Source: a phage
Sequence record: PX994957.1
Direction: 5' to 3' (one strand)
Length of the DNA stretch: 64,000 bases
Shown: piece by piece, positions 2,675 through 59,149 of the stretch
How the letters are laid out: each line of letters begins with the position of its first letter
Numbering within the stretch: position 1 is the stretch's first letter
Made by a program: the position numbers and the translations under genes
Notes under the pieces: model-generated
The model's database searches: none
Seen by the model: only the letters and a program-made list of their open reading frames with translations
What the model was told of the DNA's origin: nothing

Positions 2675-3573
<899 letters not shown>

Positions 3574-3576
3574 TCA

Positions 3577-3879
3577 TCATTTAATTCCTAAGAAAACTTC
3601 AAGAATACGAATATTATGCTCACGCCGTCCTTTGTACAATTCAGCTGTTGATTGATTCGCTGATTTACTCTGAACATTGGATGAAATAAATTTTATCATG
3701 TGATTTTTAAGCTGATACATATCAAGCCCACGAGCTTTCGCTTCTTTTCGCAGGGCTTTACCAGCATCATCTAAAGCTTTAGCATGTTCAATGTCTTCGC
3801 TAATGCTTGATACATTTTCACGGCATACGTCAATGTAACGGTCTGAGCATTCAATATAACGTTCTAACAGAGTTTTCAT
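3577..3879 (-). CDS. hypothetical early protein, 100 aa
   Basis: ORF track; stop overlaps pseT-region ATG (ATGA). Confidence 0.55.
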   Translation of the reverse strand: MKTLLERYIECSDRYIDVCRENVSSISEDIEHAKALDDAGKALRKEAKARGLDMYQLKNHMIKFISSNVQSKSANQSTAELYKGRREHNIRILEVFLGIK

Positions 3880-22878: not shown

Positions 22879-22883
22879 ACTGA

Positions 22884-22910
22884 GGGAGCCTTCGGGTTCC
22901 CTTTTTCTTT
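22884..22910 (+). terminator. stem-loop terminator after gene 35 (UUCG tetraloop hairpin plus U-run)
   Basis: GGGAGCC-UUCG-GGUUCCC followed by UUUUUCUUU. Confidence 0.65.
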
Positions 22911-26932: not shown

Positions 26933-26936
26933 AATG

Positions 26937-26950
26937 AGGGGCTTCGGCCC
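26937..26950 (+). promoter_or_regulatory. UUCG-tetraloop hairpin between gene 37 stop and gene 38 RBS
   Basis: GGGGC-UUCG-GCCCC immediately 5' of GGAGG and the gene 38 ATG. Confidence 0.5.
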
Positions 26951-26963
26951 CTTGGAGGTTTAT

Positions 26964-32302: not shown

Positions 32303-32452
32303 TTACTGCATGACTGTGATAACTGTCATGATAACACGTTGAATTCCGAACGCAAGAAGACCTCCTGCTACGGCTGGAACAACACCTAAACCCGCCAGTA
32401 AAATGCTACCGGATACTAATGCAGCGCTTGTAATACCTATGAATGGACTCAT
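32303..32452 (-). CDS. small hydrophobic membrane protein, 49 aa (copy B)
   Basis: identical to 31303-31452. Confidence 0.5.
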   Translation of the reverse strand: MSPFIGITSAALVSGSILLAGLGVVPAVAGGLLAFGIQRVIMTVITVMQ

Positions 32453-33777
32453 TTGATTTCCTCTAAATCTTTAGTGTATTCGGTAACTACATTAGTAGTT
32501 TTCCAATATTCGTTTTCTTCTTTCTTAGCTTTAGCTTCTTCAGCAAGTTTCTTTGCTTCGTCGGAAGTCATATGAAAAATATTCATTCCAACTAGTTTAT
32601 CAACATAAGAAGAATACATATCGATTTTCGAAAGTTCTTCGGTCAGTTCTTTGCGAGTTTTACCCTGCACAACGATTTCACCTGAAATTACTTTCTTAAT
32701 GAAATGTGCCTTGGCAAAGGCTAAACGAAAAGCTGACTCAGTTTCTTTGATTTTGTTATCAATTCGTTTTTGGACATAAGTTTTACGAACTTCAACAAAG
32801 TCTTTAATTAAATCAACTACGTTATCGTAAACTTGTAGTTTTCCTTTCTCATTAATAACCGTAATATTCTGAGAACGACGCTCAATCAACCCGAAGTCTT
32901 TCATAATTTTTGCATGGCGTTCTTCTTCGTTATCGCTCAAAGAATATTCTTTACGGAATTTAACTTTGAATCCAAAACCATGCTCACCACAAGCATCATC
33001 CCATGTAATGAAGCCTTTATCTTCAAGTGGGTCTAAGATTTTACTCACATAAGTTTCACGATCATACTTATACGGAATCTCAGTGATATGCATTTGAGTT
33101 CGTGAAGTAAACTTATATGTTCCACGAATTTCATATTGGCCATCAATCTCAACGACTTCACCACGAAATTCTGGGAATTCTACCTTCGGTTTAGTTACTT
33201 TCTTTCCTTGAAGAGCTTGTAATACAGCTTTCTTAACAGAAGAAACACTATGAGGAAGAATGTAAGTTGCATAACCAGTTGCAATACCGGAAACACCATT
33301 AAGAAGAACAGTAGGAATAATAGGCAAATAGAAAGCAGGCGGAATGTGTTCTTTATCTTGATGTACCGGAGCATATTCAGTATCTTTATATACGTTATAG
33401 AAATTTTTACTTACACGAGCAAAAATATAACGACTTGCTGCTGCTTTTTGGACGGTACGAGAACCAAAGTTTCCTTGACCATCTAACAGAGGAAAATTAT
33501 TATTCCAAGTGTTAGCCATCAAAGCACCTGCGTCTTGCGCAGAGTTTTCACCATGATGATATCCAAGGTCCGCTACACCACCTGCAATAGAAGCGAGTTT
33601 GTGAAACTTATCTTTATTTCCTCGTGCCAAATCAAGAGCTCGAGCAATAACAAATCGTTGAACTGGCTTAAATCCGTCAATCATATTTGGAATGGCACGA
33701 TTTTCAACCGTGTACATAGCATAAGCCAATGCTTCATTATCAATGATACTTTTTAAATCGCGATTATTCAGTTGCAT
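32449..33777 (-). CDS. 52: DNA topoisomerase II medium subunit gp52 (GyrA-like, intact)
   Basis: 442 aa; catalytic-Tyr region AASRYI; T4 synteny. Confidence 0.93.
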   Translation of the reverse strand: MQLNNRDLKSIIDNEALAYAMYTVENRAIPNMIDGFKPVQRFVIARALDLARGNKDKFHKLASIAGGVADLGYHHGENSAQDAGALMANTWNNNFPLLDGQGNFGSRTVQKAAASRYIFARVSKNFYNVYKDTEYAPVHQDKEHIPPAFYLPIIPTVLLNGVSGIATGYATYILPHSVSSVKKAVLQALQGKKVTKPKVEFPEFRGEVVEIDGQYEIRGTYKFTSRTQMHITEIPYKYDRETYVSKILDPLEDKGFITWDDACGEHGFGFKVKFRKEYSLSDNEEERHAKIMKDFGLIERRSQNITVINEKGKLQVYDNVVDLIKDFVEVRKTYVQKRIDNKIKETESAFRLAFAKAHFIKKVISGEIVVQGKTRKELTEELSKIDMYSSYVDKLVGMNIFHMTSDEAKKLAEEAKAKKEENEYWKTTNVVTEYTKDLEEIK

Positions 33778-33781
33778 AAAT

Positions 33782-33928
33782 TTACCATACTAGTGAATGT
33801 AGTGCCATAATAACATCAGAAATGAAAAGCACGACTTGAATTAATCCGAACATTACTCCATAATATAGTGCTACTAATAAAGTAGCAAGGGCTAATGAAT
33901 AGCCCAAGATTTTCTTAATCATTTTCAT
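33782..33928 (-). CDS. small hydrophobic membrane protein, 48 aa
   Basis: own translation MKMIKKILGYSLALATLLVAL... Confidence 0.4.
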   Translation of the reverse strand: MKMIKKILGYSLALATLLVALYYGVMFGLIQVVLFISDVIMALHSLVW

Positions 33929-34067
33929 TTAATAGCCAAAACAATGATAAAATTGCTAATACGCCTTGAGCTGTTGCTTGTAAAAATACTGAAGTTTCTC
34001 CAGTTATTACTGTTCCGGCGAATAAAAAGGACCAGCAGAAAAAGGCTATACCATAAACAAATTTCAT
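33915..34067 (-). CDS. ac: small hydrophobic membrane protein, 50 aa (position and size like T4 ac)
   Basis: own translation MKFVYGIAFFCWSFLFAG...; immediately downstream of stp. Confidence 0.4.
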   Translation of the reverse strand: MKFVYGIAFFCWSFLFAGTVITGETSVFLQATAQGVLAILSLFWLLNEND

Positions 34068-34074
34068 ATTTTCC

Positions 34075-34155
34075 TCACTGGCGTCCGAAGACGCCTTTAG
34101 TTTTAAAATTATTACGATAGAACTGCATCACATGTTCGTTATGGAAATTACTCAT
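34075..34155 (-). CDS. stp: Stp peptide (26 aa)
   Basis: own translation [26 protein letters not shown] matches recalled T4 Stp; ATG overlaps the ndd stop. Confidence 0.7.
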
Positions 34156-34613
34156 TAATATGCCTGCAAAACGAATTTAAAGTTATCAGCCAACATACGG
34201 TTCATTTCTTCAAGTGTTTGATACTCAGAATGATGATTACGAGTAAACGCTAAAGCTAACTGTCCTTTTCCAAATCCCGTCGTCAGAGGTTTCATCTTAG
34301 AAGCAGGCAGATAAAACACTGTGTATGGAACATTGTTATTTGCAATAGTACGTGCAAGCTGAGACCGACGTTGACGAATATGACTTAGAACTGCACTGAA
34401 TCCTTGCTTAGAACGCTGATTACCTACATAAAATCGTGCTGACACACATGGATTACTAAATGGACGACCATCTAATTTACTTACTAAAAAGTAAAATCCA
34501 GGTTTAGATAAAATATCTTTATGCGGAGTTCCCAAAAACCACTCACCGCCCTTGATTGTACCAATAACAGTAGCACCTGCATCATTCAGATCAGTAACAG
34601 TCATATATTTCAT
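34155..34613 (-). CDS. ndd: nucleoid disruption protein Ndd
   Basis: 152 aa from MKYMTVTDL; matches recalled T4 Ndd. Confidence 0.88.
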
Positions 34614-34673
34614 ATTAATTTCCTCTAAATTATTTTCTACTCCAAGGCCGCATGAATACACACGGCCATTAAA

Positions 34674-34889
34674 TTAATCGTCGCAGTCGACGCTCAATTC
34701 CCAAAACTCTTCTACGGTATAAGTTTCAGTATCATTTTCAATACAGAAACGTTCATTACTGTTATTTGCTAAAGTAGCGTTAACTGTCGGTTTCTCGCTA
34801 GTGCTCTTAAGAGGTGAAATACGAATTAACTGATCACCGTTATCTAAACAGAAAATTTCACCAACTTTTACATCTTTAAAACTTTTCAT
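34674..34889 (-). CDS. hypothetical protein, 71 aa
   Basis: ORF track. Confidence 0.5.
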   Translation of the reverse strand: MKSFKDVKVGEIFCLDNGDQLIRISPLKSTSEKPTVNATLANNSNERFCIENDTETYTVEEFWELSVDCDD

Positions 34890-35004
34890 AATTCACCTCA
34901 AGGAGTATAAAATCCAAATGCAGTTGTTGACCATCCCATCCAATATGGAAAATTTGCACCAATGTAAAACATAAGAATATAAAACCAACCGCTCAACAAA
35001 TTCA

Positions 35005-35223
35005 TCATTTTACACCATTCCAAATTGTTTCAACTACTGATTTTAAACCATTTTGATAAATATCCATTCCGACTACTGCCATCAAATAGATTCCAACTAC
35101 AACTGAACCTAAGGCGAAAATCAGCATAAAAATAAATAAAGTCGGAAAAATATTATCGAAAAACCATTCAATAAATGTAAAAGCACCGCGTTTACGCTTC
35201 ATATTTTCCTCACATAAATCCAA
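35005..35223 (-). CDS. small membrane protein, 72 aa
   Basis: ORF track; hydrophobic. Confidence 0.5.
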   Translation of the reverse strand: MDLCEENMKRKRGAFTFIEWFFDNIFPTLFIFMLIFALGSVVVGIYLMAVVGMDIYQNGLKSVVETIWNGVK

Positions 35224-35323
35224 AATAAGCGTTTAACATATCAATCATTAAAACGATTGGGAATATACTCAAAACTATTAGTATTATAACTACATTCCAT
35301 ATAGCTTTAACAATCTTTTTCAT
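35210..35323 (-). CDS. small membrane protein, 37 aa (MKKIVKAIWNVVIILIVL...)
   Basis: internal ATG with GGAGGAA RBS directly downstream of early promoter. Confidence 0.45.
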   Translation of the reverse strand: MKKIVKAIWNVVIILIVLSIFPIVLMIDMLNAYFGFM

Positions 35324-35350
35324 TTTGTGTTCCTCCGTAGTTGATAGTTG

Positions 35351-35381
35351 TATAGTACCACAGAGGAACAGTCTTGTAAAC
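35351..35381 (-). promoter_or_regulatory. sigma70-type early promoter with conserved leader box
   Basis: minus strand GTTTAC-N18-TACTAT. Confidence 0.55.
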
Positions 35382-35598
35382 AACTTTTTTAAAAATATTC
35401 GTAATAAATGTGAATACCAACTACTACCGCTGAAACCTGTGCAACCCACCACGCGCAAGCAATAAGTACAGAATTAAAAATTTTCATAATAACCTCATCA
35501 CAAAAGTAAATGTTAAACAAATTAATGGAATACTAATTAACCAAACAAAACACCACCATAATGAACTCATAGTTCAATCTCAACGATTTTCATTTTAC

Positions 35599-35817
35599 TC
35601 AATAATCCGCTAAAAGATCGACGATTGCATCACGAAGACACTTATTCGCAATACGTTTAAGAGCAATTTCAGTTTCTGGAGCATTTTGAATAATCATTGA
35701 ATTCAATTCAGCCTCAGCAAACTGAAGTTCTTTAACTAATTCAGCTTTATATTTTCCTTGCCCTTTCTTAGCTTTTGCTCGTTTTAATTCAGCTGTAGTA
35801 AACATTTTATTCTCCAA
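35599..35817 (-). CDS. hypothetical basic protein, about 69-72 aa
   Basis: ORF track. Confidence 0.5.
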   Translation of the reverse strand: MENKMFTTAELKRAKAKKGQGKYKAELVKELQFAEAELNSMIIQNAPETEIALKRIANKCLRDAIVDLLADY

Positions 35818-35838
35818 ATCCGTATCAGTTGATAGTTG

Positions 35839-35869
35839 TATATTACCACAGTCCTTGTGGTATGTAAAC
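35839..35869 (-). promoter_or_regulatory. sigma70-type early promoter with CCACA-N5-TGTGG palindrome between -35 and -10
   Basis: minus strand GTTTAC ... CCACAAGGACTGTGG TAATAT. Confidence 0.55.
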
Positions 35870-35884
35870 CGTTTGTGAAAATTT

Positions 35885-36442
35885 TTAAATGGAAAGATAC
35901 CATCCGTTGTAGTTGCTTTTTCTTACAACCTTACGAAGGTCTTCTCTGTCACCGATGAACTTCGGAGTGTACTGGATGACACCTGGATGAATTTCTTTAG
36001 TGTTGAATATAATTATACAGTCAGCGACTTGATGATTTAGAATGGGCCCTAAATTTATTCCAGAACCATATGGATACTCTCCGCTGCATCCCGTTGTTAC
36101 CGAAATCCAACGCGAGTCAGTTTGATGTGTTTTGACTTCTACACGAAGCCCGCAATATTTTGGATGCGCTAAAACATCCCATGCATACGTGTACGGGTCA
36201 TTAACGTCCTCTTGGCCTTTGTTAACATACCCGCTTAGCCAATCTGCTACAAAAAACTCTGCGTACACCGCGATACGGCATCTTTCGATAACTTCTGCTT
36301 TATCCTGGTTCGGGTTTTGTTTTAAAGAGTATCTTGCTGTATCAGCAATTTTGACCTTCATTTCACTAGTCAAATCACTGTTCGATAGGGTAAATGTCGG
36401 AATCTGAAATAGTCTCTGTAAACCCGGATTCGTTTTCTGCAT
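35885..36442 (-). CDS. denB: endonuclease IV
   Basis: 185 aa; size and position as T4 denB. Confidence 0.8.
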   Translation of the reverse strand: MQKTNPGLQRLFQIPTFTLSNSDLTSEMKVKIADTARYSLKQNPNQDKAEVIERCRIAVYAEFFVADWLSGYVNKGQEDVNDPYTYAWDVLAHPKYCGLRVEVKTHQTDSRWISVTTGCSGEYPYGSGINLGPILNHQVADCIIIFNTKEIHPGVIQYTPKFIGDREDLRKVVRKSNYNGWYLSI

Positions 36443-36704
36443 TTAGACTTTCCTTTTTACCGCTGAGATAAGCGTTATATACTTTAAGAGTGCCGTAATA
36501 AATTCGGTCATTTTCATCTAAAGACTCACGGTCAAGTTCATCGAGTTCCTTTTTATCCATGACTATAACATCATTGCAATAAAGAAACCCAAGTTTTTTG
36601 TGTCCAAACTCAAATTTATTACAGTACACAATATTAGCGTGATGATTACCATGTAGAGAAATTTCTTTTATGTCGGAATCACCGATATTCATACAATAAA
36701 TCAT
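36375..36704 (-). CDS. hypothetical protein, about 105-109 aa; 3' end overlaps the denB start by 68 nt
   Basis: ORF track. Confidence 0.45.
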   Translation of the reverse strand: MIYCMNIGDSDIKEISLHGNHHANIVYCNKFEFGHKKLGFLYCNDVIVMDKKELDELDRESLDENDRIYYGTLKVYNAYLSGKKESLNAENESGFTETISDSDIYPIEQ

Positions 36705-36723
36705 AATTCACCTTAAAACAAAA

Positions 36724-36735
36724 GGGCCGAAGCCC
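36724..36735 (-). terminator. stem-loop GGGC-CGAA-GCCC flanked by U-runs (possibly bidirectional)
   Basis: perfect hairpin read in sequence. Confidence 0.5.
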
Positions 36736-36740
36736 TTATT

Positions 36741-36935: not shown

Positions 36936-36963
36936 AATTTTCCTTAGTTAAGGGCCGAAGCCC

Positions 36964-37902
36964 TTATTTAAATTGTTCAGTAACGTCTTCAATTACTTCG
37001 TATTGGCAGGTACGCATTTTAGCGTCGTTGTAATCAATCGGAATTGATACTACATCACGAGGATGAACTTTAACTTTTACAACTCGGCTGGTTGAACCAC
37101 CGAAGTGACGAATATAAGATTTAGAACACACATGCAGACCACGAGAACAAGTTTGTGTATCATCGTCATTCACACGAGTACGCGGCATTTTAACTACTTT
37201 ACCAGGACTGTTATCAAAGGTATTTGAGTGACAGTCAAAGTAATTGCTGCGAACTACTTTCCAAGCATAGAAGTAACCATCTTCTGTAATTTCAATATCG
37301 TTTGCTACCAAGAAATCAAAAAGTCGAGATACCGCTTTCTGGCTTGGGTTTTCCAGCAGATTTTCCAAGAACGGAAAATAAACTTCAAAGTTTTCGCCTT
37401 TTTCCATCGAATCAAGAATACGATCAACCAAACCAGACCGCAATTCAATATTTTGATAGAATAAGCTTCCACCTTCAATTCGAACATCGCCGGAAATATA
37501 TTTTTCAACAGCGCGACGAACATTAATTTTTTGTGCCGCTTCTTCCAGCTTATCCGCTACAAGCAGATTGAGAATTTCCTGGAAGTTTGAATGAGTATTA
37601 GGTGTTGCATTATAAGTTACACCATCGACAGTAATCGAAATGAATTTTTTAGATGCATTCCAAATAATGTCAGATTTAGTAACTGGAGCAATAACTGCAT
37701 CGCTATTAACTTTAACTGTAATATCACCGCTAATAGTAACTTTAGAGCGTTTAGCTTCTTCAGCATTTTTCAAAACACGACGGATTGTATCAACCGATAC
37801 ACCTTGCCAATCAGCCAATTCCTGCTGAGTATAATTACCGCTTGAATACAGTTTAACAATTTCAGCTTGTTCGTTTTTGGTCAGGCATTTAATATTGTAC
37901 AT
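36964..37902 (-). CDS. rIIB: rapid-lysis protein rIIB
   Basis: 312 aa; N-terminus MYNIKCLTKNEQAEIV matches recalled T4 rIIB. Confidence 0.93.
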   Translation of the reverse strand: MYNIKCLTKNEQAEIVKLYSSGNYTQQELADWQGVSVDTIRRVLKNAEEAKRSKVTISGDITVKVNSDAVIAPVTKSDIIWNASKKFISITVDGVTYNATPNTHSNFQEILNLLVADKLEEAAQKINVRRAVEKYISGDVRIEGGSLFYQNIELRSGLVDRILDSMEKGENFEVYFPFLENLLENPSQKAVSRLFDFLVANDIEITEDGYFYAWKVVRSNYFDCHSNTFDNSPGKVVKMPRTRVNDDDTQTCSRGLHVCSKSYIRHFGGSTSRVVKVKVHPRDVVSIPIDYNDAKMRTCQYEVIEDVTEQFK

Positions 37903-42180: not shown

Positions 42181-42231
42181 TTATCCTCGTTTGGTTTCGG
42201 GAATATTATACTCCGGCAATCATAAAGCTAA

Positions 42232-42243
42232 AGGCCCGAAGGC
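42232..42243 (-). terminator. stem-loop GGCC-CGAA-GGCC with flanking U-runs
   Basis: hairpin read in sequence. Confidence 0.45.
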
Positions 42244-42246
42244 CTT

Positions 42247-42516
42247 TTATTTAAAACGAATAGTTGAATCCTTAAAGAACAACCCAGAACATACTGTTCC
42301 TTCTACTTTCTGCCCAGTAGGTCCAATAGCACGAAATCCAGTATGTTGGAAATCATTTTCAGAGCAACCGAACCAATTATATCCAGTGATTTCAATATTC
42401 GTAAAACCACTCGATGATAAAATTTTAGTTGCATTATCAGCATCAGTACATCCTACTAAAGATACTGCTAATACTAATGCTGCAATAGAACGATTAATAT
42501 ATTTCATAGTTTTCAC
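42247..42516 (-). CDS. predicted lipoprotein, 89 aa
   Basis: signal peptide with LVGC lipobox. Confidence 0.55.
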   Translation of the reverse strand: MKTMKYINRSIAALVLAVSLVGCTDADNATKILSSSGFTNIEITGYNWFGCSENDFQHTGFRAIGPTGQKVEGTVCSGLFFKDSTIRFK

Positions 42517-58786: not shown

Positions 58787-59149
58787 TTAAAAGAATTTAA
58801 ACTTTTTCTTTGACCTTTTATTAAATGCATCTTGTAGTTGCATTGTAATACATTTTTCTACATGAGGAGCTAACTCAGCTTTTCTTTTTTGGTCAAGAAC
58901 AGCAAAGTCCATTACGACTTTTCCATCAACCCAATCTAATTTTGTCACATACACAATATGTGTAGAACCATCTTCTAGTTTAATGACAATCTCCTGGATA
59001 ACATTTTCCATGGCAGATTTAATTATCTTAAGAGATTCATTAAAAAGACGTTCTTTTCTTTCTTCTTCCCCCTCCGAAGAGGGGGATTCATCGATAATTT
59101 CTAGATCTAAATCTAAATCATCTTTATTCATTAAATTCTTCCATATCAC
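58787..59149 (-). CDS. 40: head vertex assembly chaperone gp40
   Basis: 120 aa; T4 synteny between 41 and uvsX. Confidence 0.7.
   Translation of the reverse strand: MIWKNLMNKDDLDLDLEIIDESPSSEGEEERKERLFNESLKIIKSAMENVIQEIVIKLEDGSTHIVYVTKLDWVDGKVVMDFAVLDQKRKAELAPHVEKCITMQLQDAFNKRSKKKFKFF

Follow-up and report, generated by a model that had tools for sequence, protein, structure and literature searches.

The closest described counterpart of the locus analyzed here is the "sa" deletion region of phage T4 (NC_000866, 165209..166996), which carries genes 52.1, ac, stp, ndd, and ndd.1 to ndd.6. The block is nonessential on laboratory strains, and the sa-delta-9 deletion, which removes all of it, abolishes phage-induced phosphatidylglycerol synthesis (PMC6071114). 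T4 Ndd disrupts the nucleoid, T4 Stp inhibits type Ic restriction (EcoprrI and EcoR124I) and thereby activates the PrrC anticodon nuclease (PMC3014915), and T4 Ac sensitizes infection to acriflavine, for which a block of AcrAB-TolC has been proposed (bioRxiv 10.1101/2025.06.30.662393; PMC13250531). The T4 proteome study classed the transcripts of all these genes as early; by mass spectrometry, it found Ndd.1 early, and the products of 52.1, ac, stp, and ndd.2 to ndd.6 were missing from the proteins identified. Also known from this phage group are C(UUCG)G hairpins, a hallmark of T4 mRNA first described in T4 in 1988 (PMC4371310), and the PeSL (promoter-early stem-loop) cassettes of T4-type hyperplastic regions, in which repeated early promoters flank variable ORFs (PMC2839356, PMC4122927).

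The window studied here (the whole 64,000-nucleotide stretch from record PX994957.1) belongs to a Tequatrovirus, a T4-like phage, and shows 99.8% DNA identity to phage vB_EcoM-G157lw. The flagged stretch within it is the classical nonessential sa region, gene 52 to denB, and has gene order, strand, overlaps, and promoters in common with T4. We found nine small ORFs of 26 to 71 amino acids (aa), all on the minus strand and flanking ndd (34155..34613, minus strand), whose 152-aa nucleoid disruption protein is 99% identical to T4 Ndd and has matches in 1080 phage records. The nine correspond to T4 52.1, ac, stp, ndd.1, ndd.2, ndd.2a (fused with ndd.3), ndd.4, ndd.5, and ndd.6. Protein identity to T4 is 92 to 98% for 52.1, stp, ndd.1, ndd.2, ndd.4, ndd.5, and ndd.6. 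The window differs from T4 in carrying another ac allele, RB69-like and 38 to 40% identical to T4 Ac, in having ndd.2a and ndd.3 as a single 65-aa ORF, and in possessing an additional 68-aa ORF (RB32ORF266c-like) and a duplicated promoter between ndd.6 and denB. A PHROG match was obtained for 10/10 small proteins tested and a Pfam match for three (52.1, Stp, and Ndd.2a).

The preliminary description of this DNA had reported a cluster of at least eight small genes around stp and ndd, most of them for transmembrane peptides. Such a cluster is present: every ORF listed there exists on the minus strand, and ndd.1 completes the set of nine around ndd. Its placement of the cluster downstream of gene 52 (32449..33777, minus strand; topoisomerase II medium subunit of 442 aa, 100% identical to T4 gp52 by tblastn and annotated in relatives) was wrong. 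Because all the small genes are on the minus strand and are transcribed towards gene 52, they lie upstream of this anchor gene, which forms the 3′ end of the transcription unit. The cluster is already known, and the observation is correct but ordinary; since each member already bears a gene name in T4 and falls into a PHROG or Pfam family, it is not a discovery. The best explanation overall, to which we assign a probability of about 0.9, is a T4-type sa accessory block that encodes Ndd and nine mini-proteins, putative membrane effectors among them, and bears a hairpin that may act at the RNA level.

Several lines of evidence indicated that the nine small ORFs are genuine conserved early genes. 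ATG-initiated ORFs with a minimum length of 25 aa account for 91% of the sense strand versus 28.5 ± 10.9% (maximum, 61.5%) in 500 dinucleotide shuffles, and for only 16% of the antisense strand. A Shine-Dalgarno (SD) motif precedes six of the ORFs, compared with 0.4 expected (maximum, 3) in the shuffles, and every small ORF either has a strong GAGG-type ribosome-binding site or overlaps its neighbor at the stop and start codons. When pooled over the hydrophobic ORFs, polymorphic sites were distributed over the three codon positions as 26/11/54 (p = 1.5e-7). In-genus pN/pS ranged from 0.04 to 0.13 for stp, ndd.1, ndd.2, ndd.2a/3, ndd.5, and ndd.6 and was 0.27 for 52.1, while selection was only weakly resolved for ndd.4 (0.57, with 7 polymorphic sites) and for the window ac allele (0.76, among 4 sequences). 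These statistics cover 11 in-genus sequences plus the window, because a search of IMG/VR for Ndd yielded only 5 loci. Between genera, nucleotide identity peaks at codon position 2 and, except in ndd.6, is lowest at position 3, and amino acid conservation was seen at syntenic positions for most of the small ORFs. Conservation of the frames in relatives, the check put forward in the preliminary description itself, thus gave a positive answer, with 494 to 813 phage records for the two genes counted, matches in several other Tevenvirinae genera, and purifying selection. A literature search found no relevant paper on T4 ribosome profiling (Ribo-seq), and the main text of the CRISPRi-ART paper makes no mention of these genes.

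The same data bear on the possibility that the frames are chance ORFs in a T-rich noncoding or regulatory spacer from which no peptides are made. They are indeed very short, T-rich sequence favors hydrophobic codons, automatic gene calling left several of them out of related records, and the T4 proteins went undetected by mass spectrometry. However, an ORF coverage of 91% versus 28% in shuffled sequence, the enrichment of SD motifs, the bias of polymorphism toward third positions together with low pN/pS, the syntenic amino acid conservation across genera, and the classical genetics of ac and stp effectively refute this explanation, whose probability we consider negligible. The frames had also been described as mostly below the usual annotation thresholds. 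T4 RefSeq annotates all nine, so this does not hold for the reference genome, but it does hold for close records, several of which omit some of the genes: the closest one, G157lw, lacks 52.1, stp, and ndd.6, as does AREG1, and RB32 lacks ndd.6. Automatic annotation of close T4 relatives therefore still loses real mini-genes, as it does for 52.1, stp, and ndd.6 in the nearest GenBank record.

A further alternative is that translation alone matters, the ORFs acting as relays that pass ribosomes along the polycistronic early mRNA as far as ndd and gene 52, with products that have no function of their own. Four starts that are without a good SD motif overlap the previous stop (UAAUG, AUGA twice, and a 14-nucleotide [nt] ac/52.1 overlap), and gene 52, which has no obvious SD motif, starts 4 to 5 nt after 52.1 in all genera examined, as a relay would lead one to expect. 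Nevertheless, the peptides are under purifying selection and are kept between genera despite diverged synonymous sites, missense alleles of ac and stp show phenotypes, and a pure relay would give no reason for hydrophobic helices to be maintained, all of which makes this alternative very improbable. The ORFs belong to a tightly packed minus-strand early gene run led by two sigma-70-type early promoters, and we favor the reading that they encode functional mini-proteins, with translation initiated either at strong GAGG-type ribosome-binding sites or through overlap of the start with the stop of the preceding gene.

Judged by sequence, seven of the nine peptides should partition into membranes (52.1, Ac, Ndd.2, Ndd.2a/3, Ndd.4, Ndd.5, and Ndd.6); the hydrophobic character initially ascribed to the cluster applies to these seven and not to Stp and Ndd.1, which are hydrophilic. 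The gene nearest to gene 52 is 52.1 (33782..33922, minus strand), encoding a 46-aa two-helix membrane peptide that matches Pfam DUF7396 (81.7 bits versus a cutoff of 27) and PHROG 3595. The ORF had been listed as 33782..33928, and an ATG at 33928 would indeed yield 48 aa, but relatives keep the second ATG, at 33922, as the start. This start overlaps the ac stop, and the 52.1 stop lies 4 nt ahead of the gene 52 ATG, a spacing that is 4 to 5 nt in seven other genera. Matches to 52.1 were found by tblastn in 813 phage records, and its conservation reaches Winklervirus.

The ORF listed at 33915..34067 (minus strand) is ac, which has a strong ribosome-binding site, GUGAGGAAAAUAUG. It represents the RB69-like allele and encodes a membrane peptide of 50 aa and two helices (PHROG 2501, E = 8.7e-23 over residues 1 to 49), with hydrophobic segments at residues 3 to 22 and 27 to 46 separated by a short polar turn. 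Identity to T4 Ac is 38% by BLASTP (E = 8e-9) and 40% by tblastn, and the QA-AQG motif is kept: in the BLASTP alignment, G35 of the window protein (QATAQG) corresponds to G38 of T4 Ac (QALAQG), the residue whose replacement in G38R confers acriflavine resistance (bioRxiv 10.1101/2025.06.30.662393). By sequence, the window protein is a member of the acridine sensitivity protein family, at only 38 to 40% identity to the experimentally tested T4 Ac. Among bacterial small membrane-protein regulators, AcrZ is a 49-aa partner of AcrB. Ac and AcrZ are alike in size and in having one or two transmembrane helices, and Ac has been proposed to target this pump as well; they differ in that Ac is a proposed inhibitor rather than a tuner.

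As had been noted from the sequence, the cluster includes Stp and a GGCGUC-UUCG-GACGCC hairpin in the 3′ end of its gene. The stp gene (34075..34155, minus strand) encodes a hydrophilic 26-aa peptide, and its start overlaps the ndd stop (UAAUG). The peptide matches Pfam PF08133 (anticodon nuclease activator) with 71.2 bits against a cutoff of 25, all of residues 1 to 26 being covered, and PHROG 6763. It agrees with T4 Stp at 25/26 residues, with residues 1 to 16 and 18 identical; the single difference, L17F, is common to wV7 and other natural isolates. Its pN/pS is 0.04. By its match to the Stp family, the window peptide is a predicted type Ic restriction inhibitor and PrrC activator. In T4, loss-of-function mutations map to residues 4 to 14, within the conserved N-terminal 18 residues, and the final 8 codons are largely dispensable for peptide activity (PMC3014915).

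The hairpin (34080..34095, minus strand) occupies stp codons 21 to 26 and forms six pairs. Its local fold has a free energy of −11.5 kcal/mol, with a UUCG loop, a C-G closing pair, and a Watson-Crick stem, and it ends 3 nt ahead of the ac SD motif (GAGG). Ten C(UUCG)G hairpins are present in the window versus 0.75 expected. The one in stp resembles those of T4 mRNA in its C-G-closed UUCG loop and 6-bp GC-rich stem, and it differs from at least two of the nine others (36722-36737 and 36949-36966), which lie between ORFs, in being intracoding. It is invariant in the window and in 10/11 of the Tequatrovirus sequences compared, and the variants seen are compatible with the structure (a G.U stem closure in wV7, a G.U pair in EcWhh-1, and a UUUG loop in VR26). 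Third positions vary at 5 sites in 20 stp codons and at 0 in the 5 hairpin codons, a sample too small to be informative, and the conservation could stem from the conserved GVFGR peptide and the short evolutionary distances.

The hairpin may also be viewed as ending transcription, be it of the early minus-strand unit or of antisense RNA read from the plus strand. A simple scan flagged the plus strand, where GGCGTCCGAAGACGCC is followed by TTTAGTTTTA, and a T-rich tail occurs only on that strand; yet there is neither a plus-strand gene nor a late promoter nearby. In the mRNA orientation, AGUGAGGAAAAUAUG comes after the hairpin, and since this contains no U-run, the reading as an intrinsic (Rho-independent) terminator was rejected for that strand; furthermore, ac, 52.1, and 52, which lie downstream, require read-through. 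A role in termination thus appears improbable. We reasoned instead that the hairpin could serve as an RNA-level element which would stabilize or punctuate the ndd-stp mRNA and leave the ac ribosome-binding site exposed.

On the other side of ndd, ndd.1 (34674..34889, minus strand) encodes a 71-aa acidic soluble protein (PHROG 2183; pN/pS, 0.10) that shows 45 to 56% identity in Gaprivervirus, Dhakavirus, and Mosigvirus. A homologue search with Ndd.1 returned only close relatives, at least 79% identical, and the AlphaFold model available from these is poor (pLDDT, 57), an all-beta sketch. Two strong stem-loops occupy the ndd.1/ndd junction (34646..34700, minus strand; −26.1 kcal/mol, z = −3.9), and 0/200 shuffles folded as well. 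The second consists of GGCCGUGUG-UAUU-CAUGCGGCC, and both sides of its stem are changed in SYGD1, IMGVR16, and IMGVR18. The candidates of 28 to 36 aa that had been mentioned outside the list of ORFs proved to be ndd.2, ndd.5, and ndd.6. The 36-aa product of ndd.2 (34898..35008, minus strand; PHROG 4135; pN/pS, 0.13) contains zero charged residues and 33% aromatic ones, with a Wimley-White value of −14.6 kcal/mol for its best 19 residues, and the ndd.2 start overlaps the ndd.2a stop (AUGA).

The ORF given at 35005..35223 exists as a version extended to a TTG; relatives annotate the 65-aa form (35005..35202, minus strand), whose ATG at 35202 is preceded by GAGGAAAAU. This gene, ndd.2a fused with "ndd.3," encodes a KRKR N terminus, a run of some 30 hydrophobic residues, and a tail of 18 residues, and its product matches PHROG 2401 and Pfam DUF7248 (67.3 bits versus a cutoff of 27, with residues 13 to 63 covered). 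Its pN/pS is 0.09, with polymorphic sites at the three codon positions numbering 5/2/21. The ndd.2a/ndd.3 split in the T4 reference corresponds to a 1-nt deletion, an extra G after ATGAA being present in 408/411 records, and the "ndd.3" of that reference is most probably an artifact of this single-base deletion.

The remaining genes each encode a single-pass membrane peptide. The ORF reported at 35210..35323 (minus strand) is ndd.4 (37 aa; PHROG 3098), with 56 to 58% identity in Gaprivervirus, Dhakavirus, and Kanagawavirus. The 32-aa ndd.5 (35389..35487, minus strand; PHROG 5011) is restricted to Tequatrovirus, where it is present in 11/11 in-genus sequences, with a pN/pS of 0.08 and polymorphic sites of 1/0/7 by codon position. 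A tblastn search of the phage collection with Ndd.5 gave zero matches even though every in-genus locus compared has the gene, which we attribute to the low-complexity filter acting on a 32-aa hydrophobic query. The stop of the 28-aa ndd.6 (35484..35570, minus strand; PHROG 8851) overlaps the ndd.5 start (AUGA). It has 494 records at 85% identity or more and weaker syntenic matches in Mosigvirus, Gaprivervirus, Dhakavirus, and Kanagawavirus; these cross-genus matches are short, and hydrophobic composition could account for part of them.

Two early sigma-70-type promoters with a TG element were found on the minus strand. One (35352..35380; TTTACA-N17-TACTAT) drives ndd.4 and the genes downstream, and the other (35840..35868; TTTACA-N17-TAATAT) lies just downstream of denB. 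The former matches the T4/PST PeSL consensus, TTTACW-N17-TAYWAT (PMC4122927), the latter has one mismatch to it, and a 25-nt repeat is common to both. The 68-aa hydrophilic ORF (35599..35805, minus strand; PHROG 4535), just beyond the range originally flagged, lies between these repeated promoters; it is annotated in RB32, G157lw, and VR26 and is missing in T4 and wV7. The arrangement resembles PeSL cassettes, of which the ndd.4/.5 exchange between T4 and PST is a published example (PMC4122927). PeSL cassettes also carry an adjacent terminator-like stem-loop; the likeness of the window rests on the promoters and the 25-nt repeat. Other genera have a promoter upstream of ndd whose −10 box lies within a hairpin loop; at this place Tequatrovirus retains the hairpin alone. 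The late-promoter motif TATAAATA was absent in and near the region, a simple MotA-box regex revealed no middle promoter, and an Rfam scan of 33000-36600 gave no known RNA family with E up to 1. The content of the block is mosaic, with alternative ac alleles, alternative 2-TM cassettes in other genera, and inserted ORFs in AREG1.

This mosaicism (with the ac alleles, 2-TM cassettes, AREG1 insertions, and ndd.4/.5 exchange [PMC4122927]), along with the nonessentiality of the block on laboratory strains and the neighboring Stp being itself a defense-related effector, would fit hydrophobic peptides that are host-specific superinfection-exclusion, anti-defense, or decoy factors, or mild membrane toxins, and not modulators of host machinery. 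However, 52.1 is far more widely and stably conserved than usual arms-race genes, and the phospholipid phenotype of sa-delta-9 suggests a physiological role, so that we regard this alternative as possible but on balance unlikely. Our preferred interpretation is that the uncharacterized hydrophobic peptides may be inner-membrane host-takeover effectors acting on host envelope machinery. In a more speculative extension, 52.1, Ndd.2, Ndd.2a/3, and Ndd.4 to Ndd.6 would each have a specific partner among the inner-membrane machines of the host, on the model proposed for Ac and AcrAB-TolC, and the long-sought cause of T4-induced phosphatidylglycerol synthesis would be one of these peptides. On this view, gp52.1, whose translation would always be coupled to that of gene 52, would act as a tether or regulator of the membrane-associated phage topoisomerase, and the stp 3′ hairpin with the UGAGGAAAAUAUG junction would be a conserved recombination joint for swapping alternative small-membrane-protein cassettes. 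We consider this extension unlikely.

The genes, Stp, and the UUCG hairpins all belong to textbook knowledge of T4, and nothing about them is new as a finding. Their interest lies in the compact 1.8-kb sa block as a whole, which is a place to seek the cause of phage-induced phosphatidylglycerol synthesis and to look for the targets of six conserved membrane peptides.

A 2.2-kb query spanning the cluster of small ORFs matched 571 phage records, nearly all of them Tequatrovirus (T4-like coliphages), and its best match was Escherichia phage vB_EcoM-G157lw, with 99.8% identity. The cluster is flanked by gene 52 (32449..33777, minus strand), encoding the topoisomerase subunit gp52 (100% identity to T4 gp52), and by the denB ORF for endonuclease IV (35885..36442); judged from these flanking ORFs, the stretch is the block known in T4 genetics as the sa or D region, which lies between gene 52 and denB/rIIB. 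All genes of the sa block lie on the minus strand and are transcribed toward gene 52, so the placement "downstream of gene 52" in the preliminary description is true in plus-strand coordinates only.

The ORFs were placed against the T4 reference annotation and the records of RB32, G157lw, and UFV-AREG1, and every ORF listed previously was present. Those on the minus strand are 52.1 (33782..33922, 46 aa, or 48 aa if translation began at an upstream ATG, specific to the window, at 33928), ac (33915..34067, 50 aa), stp (34075..34155, 26 aa), ndd (34155..34613, 152 aa), ndd.1 (34674..34889, 71 aa), ndd.2 (34898..35008, 36 aa), ndd.2a fused with "ndd.3" (termed ndd.2a3; 35005..35202, 65 aa, the end at 35223 reported before being a TTG extension), ndd.4 (35210..35323, 37 aa), ndd.5 (35389..35487, 32 aa), ndd.6 (35484..35570, 28 aa), and a 68-aa ORF with a PHROG family match (35599..35805). 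PHROG families were matched by all 10 small proteins submitted, including the 68-aa ORF (E values of 1e-17 to 1e-38), and Pfam matches over curated cutoffs were obtained for 52.1 (DUF7396), Stp (PF08133), and Ndd.2a (DUF7248). The G157lw and UFV-AREG1 records lack 52.1, stp, and ndd.6, and the RB32 record lacks ndd.6; the mini-genes missing from these nearest GenBank records are real genes. In public records, homologues of the 71-aa acidic protein Ndd.1 frequently bear the name "naphthalene 1,2-dioxygenase," apparently through a mis-annotation that has spread; the AlphaFold model of Ndd.1, built from a shallow alignment, was poor (pLDDT 57).

Could such short frames be chance ORFs? ATG-ORFs covered 91% of the sense strand, versus 28.5 ± 10.9% (maximum, 61.5%) in 500 dinucleotide shuffles and just 16% on the opposite strand, and a Shine-Dalgarno motif was found at six ORFs where 0.4 was expected. 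ORF packing is far above chance. Seven starts, those of ndd and the 68-aa ORF counted, have a strong, correctly spaced GAGG-type site, and the other four overlap the upstream stop, as UAAUG (ndd/stp), as AUGA (ndd.2a/ndd.2 and ndd.6/ndd.5), or by 14 nt (ac/52.1). Stop/start overlap of this kind is how translational coupling is usually arranged in T4. An origin by chance is effectively refuted.

In the window plus 11 Tequatrovirus sequences, pN/pS was 0.04 for stp, 0.10 for ndd.1, 0.13 for ndd.2, 0.09 for ndd.2a3, 0.08 for ndd.5, 0.11 for ndd.6, and 0.27 for 52.1, compared with 0.01 for gene 52 and 0.04 for denB; the in-genus values for ndd.4 (0.57) and the window-type ac allele (0.76) come from just 7 variable sites and just 4 sequences, respectively. 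When the seven hydrophobic ORFs were pooled, variable sites at codon positions 1, 2, and 3 numbered 26, 11, and 54 (chi-square P = 1.5e-7). Outside the genus, 52.1 occurs in Gaprivervirus, Dhakavirus, Mosigvirus, Jiaodavirus, Kanagawavirus, and Winklervirus (43 to 89% identity) and ndd.4 in Gaprivervirus, Dhakavirus, and Kanagawavirus (56 to 58%); ndd.2a3, ndd.2, ndd.1, ac, and stp are each carried by two or three other genera, ndd.6 has weaker syntenic matches, and ndd.5 is limited to Tequatrovirus in this comparison. Nucleotide identity across genera was highest at codon position 2 and, save in ndd.6, lowest at position 3, the pattern expected of conserved hydrophobic codons. Searches with tblastn retrieved 52.1 from 813 phage records and ndd.6 from 494. 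By the preliminary description's own terms, a lack of conservation of the frames would have refuted it; the cross-genus, pN/pS, and tblastn comparisons show conservation.

A second possibility is that only translation matters, with the ORFs acting as relays that feed ndd and gene 52. The gap between 52.1 and gene 52 is 4 to 5 nt in every genus examined, and coupling of the two may be real in addition to a peptide role; nevertheless, the relay explanation is contradicted by selection at the peptide level. In time-resolved omics of T4 (PMC9697503, Table S2), the transcripts of all these genes are early; at the protein level, Ndd and Ndd.1 were detected, and 52.1, Ac, Stp, and Ndd.2 to Ndd.6 went undetected. 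With high confidence, we take the mini-ORFs to be real genes and the region to be the known T4-type early accessory block.

In the T4 reference (NC_000866; 4433..4629 of the comparison locus L004), ndd.2a (40 aa) and ndd.3 (26 aa) are annotated as two distinct genes that overlap, and alignment revealed one base missing just past the start (ATGAA-CGT versus ATGAAGCGT). Since this 1-base deletion occurs in only 3 of 411 matching records (X75802, AF158101, and NC_000866), the extra base being present in resequenced T4 genomes (OZ209023 and OZ209057) and in T4T, "ndd.3" is in all likelihood an artefact; the real gene would encode the 65-aa DUF7248 protein of the window.

Stp is both required and sufficient for activation of the latent PrrC anticodon nuclease. 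It works by inhibiting EcoprrI, a type Ic restriction enzyme, and the N-terminal 18 residues of Stp are its critical part (PMC3014915). The hairpin GGCGUC-UUCG-GACGCC reported at the 3′ end of stp is present at 34080..34095 (minus strand), where it forms codons 21 to 26 (GGC GUC UUC GGA CGC C) and is followed by AGUGAGGAAAAUAUG, the ribosome-binding site and start of ac. An identical 16-mer (mRNA sense, GUGAGGAAAAUAUGAA), at 34063..34078 and 35198..35213, provides ac and ndd.2a3 alike with their ribosome-binding site and start. The stp hairpin was rejected as an intrinsic terminator on the mRNA strand, since no U-run follows it; a terminator-like call was made on the opposite strand only. Its stem is unchanged in the window and 10 of 11 Tequatrovirus sequences. 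The variants all preserve the structure: wV7, in which Stp is also shortened to 25 aa, has a terminal G.U pair; EcWhh-1 has a G.U pair; and the loop of VR26 is UUUG. Given that loss of the last 8 Stp codons causes just a moderate drop in activity (PMC3014915), we infer that the RNA structure itself constrains these codons.

Counting stems of 4 bp or more, the window holds ten C(UUCG)G hairpins, that of stp included, versus 0.75 in shuffles, and CUUCGG is its commonest hairpin with a 4-nt loop. This type of hairpin is the classic T4 feature by which the UUCG tetraloop was discovered (PMC4371310). The nine further hairpins have stems of 4 to 9 bp (e.g., 22882..22903, 26935..26954, 36722..36737, 36949..36966, 42230..42247, and 59067..59086). 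The Dhakavirus EcWhh-1 (L012; record marked UNVERIFIED) carries, at 3441..3521 and about 3739..3830, an intact VR26-type stp and a second, start-less, truncated T4-type remnant. The remnant has the same UUCG hairpin, ribosome-binding site, and UGAGGAAAAUAUG junction, and after it comes a different 53-aa ORF with two transmembrane segments (2-TM). This arrangement suggests recombination within stp.

Two early-type promoters on the minus strand, at 35380..35352 (TTTACA-N17-TACTAT) and 35868..35840 (TTTACA-N17-TAATAT), each with an upstream TG, fit the T4/PST consensus of the promoter-early stem-loop cassette, TTTACW-N17-TAYWAT (PMC4122927). They share a 25-nt direct repeat (35339..35363 and 35827..35851, 96% identity) that spans the −10 region and leader, and its copies bracket the 68-aa ORF, ndd.6, and ndd.5. 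Between ndd.1 and ndd lie two strong stem-loops (34646..34700, minus strand; −26.1 kcal/mol, z = −3.9), the second with a 9-bp stem (GGCCGUGUG/CAUGCGGCC) altered on both sides in some Tequatroviruses, whereas other genera have a promoter at this site with its −10 box inside a hairpin loop. Because Stp has been described as delayed-early (PMC3014915), this stem-loop may mark the division between immediate-early and delayed-early expression. Scans of the region found no late promoter, no MotA box, and no Rfam family.

The content of the block is mosaic. The ac gene of the window is an RB69/Mosigvirus-like allele (60% identity to JS09 and 96% to wV7), and its product is just 38 to 40% identical to T4 Ac, retaining the QA-AQG motif and its glycine, while the neighbours stp and 52.1 are 96 to 98% identical to T4; from these identities, it looks like a local allelic replacement. 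Unrelated 2-TM cassettes occupy the same place in other genera. UFV-AREG1 has an additional 57-aa 2-TM ORF between ndd and stp (native L003 1249..1422, minus strand; 2780..2953 in the sense-oriented, reverse-complemented locus). Directly after ndd, several genera without stp carry a 57- to 61-aa 2-TM family of pattern M..F.MGYL...FER.CK.CGVY. (comparison loci L007, 3438..3623; L011, 3444..3617; L008, 3438..3611; L009, 2981..3154), to which the UFV-AREG1 ORF also belongs. In other genera, the ac position is taken by a separate family of about 46 to 54 aa with a TG.W.P turn. The 68-aa ORF is missing from T4 and wV7, and shuffling in exactly this region, of ndd.4/.5 between T4 and PST, has already been published (PMC4122927). 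In view of this mosaicism, a role in defence or exclusion on particular hosts is a live alternative for some members.

Kyte-Doolittle windows gave two hydrophobic segments each for 52.1 and Ac, one long segment for Ndd.2a3, and one each for Ndd.4, Ndd.5, and Ndd.6; Ndd.2 lacks charged residues, one-third of its residues are aromatic, and its Wimley-White octanol score is −14.6 kcal/mol. The description of the peptides as mostly single- or double-TM is therefore right for seven of nine by hydrophobicity scales, Stp and Ndd.1 being hydrophilic, as is the 68-aa ORF. Ac is the sole experimentally studied membrane peptide of the block: T4 with ac deleted or mutated is acriflavine resistant, Ac expression makes E. 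coli acriflavine sensitive, and the proposed mechanism is blockage of AcrAB-TolC (bioRxiv 10.1101/2025.06.30.662393; the proposal is repeated in PMC13250531). The sa-delta-9 deletion, which takes out 52.1, ac, stp, ndd, ndd.1 to ndd.6, and denB, leaves a viable phage with about half the yield and abolishes the postinfection stimulation of phospholipid synthesis, especially of phosphatidylglycerol (PMC6071114). The seven uncharacterised mini-proteins would act as small effectors in the inner membrane, being produced within the first minutes after infection and modifying functions of the host envelope.

Taken together, the preliminary observation was correct and its interpretation sound. Cluster, Stp peptide, and hairpin class alike are established T4 features.
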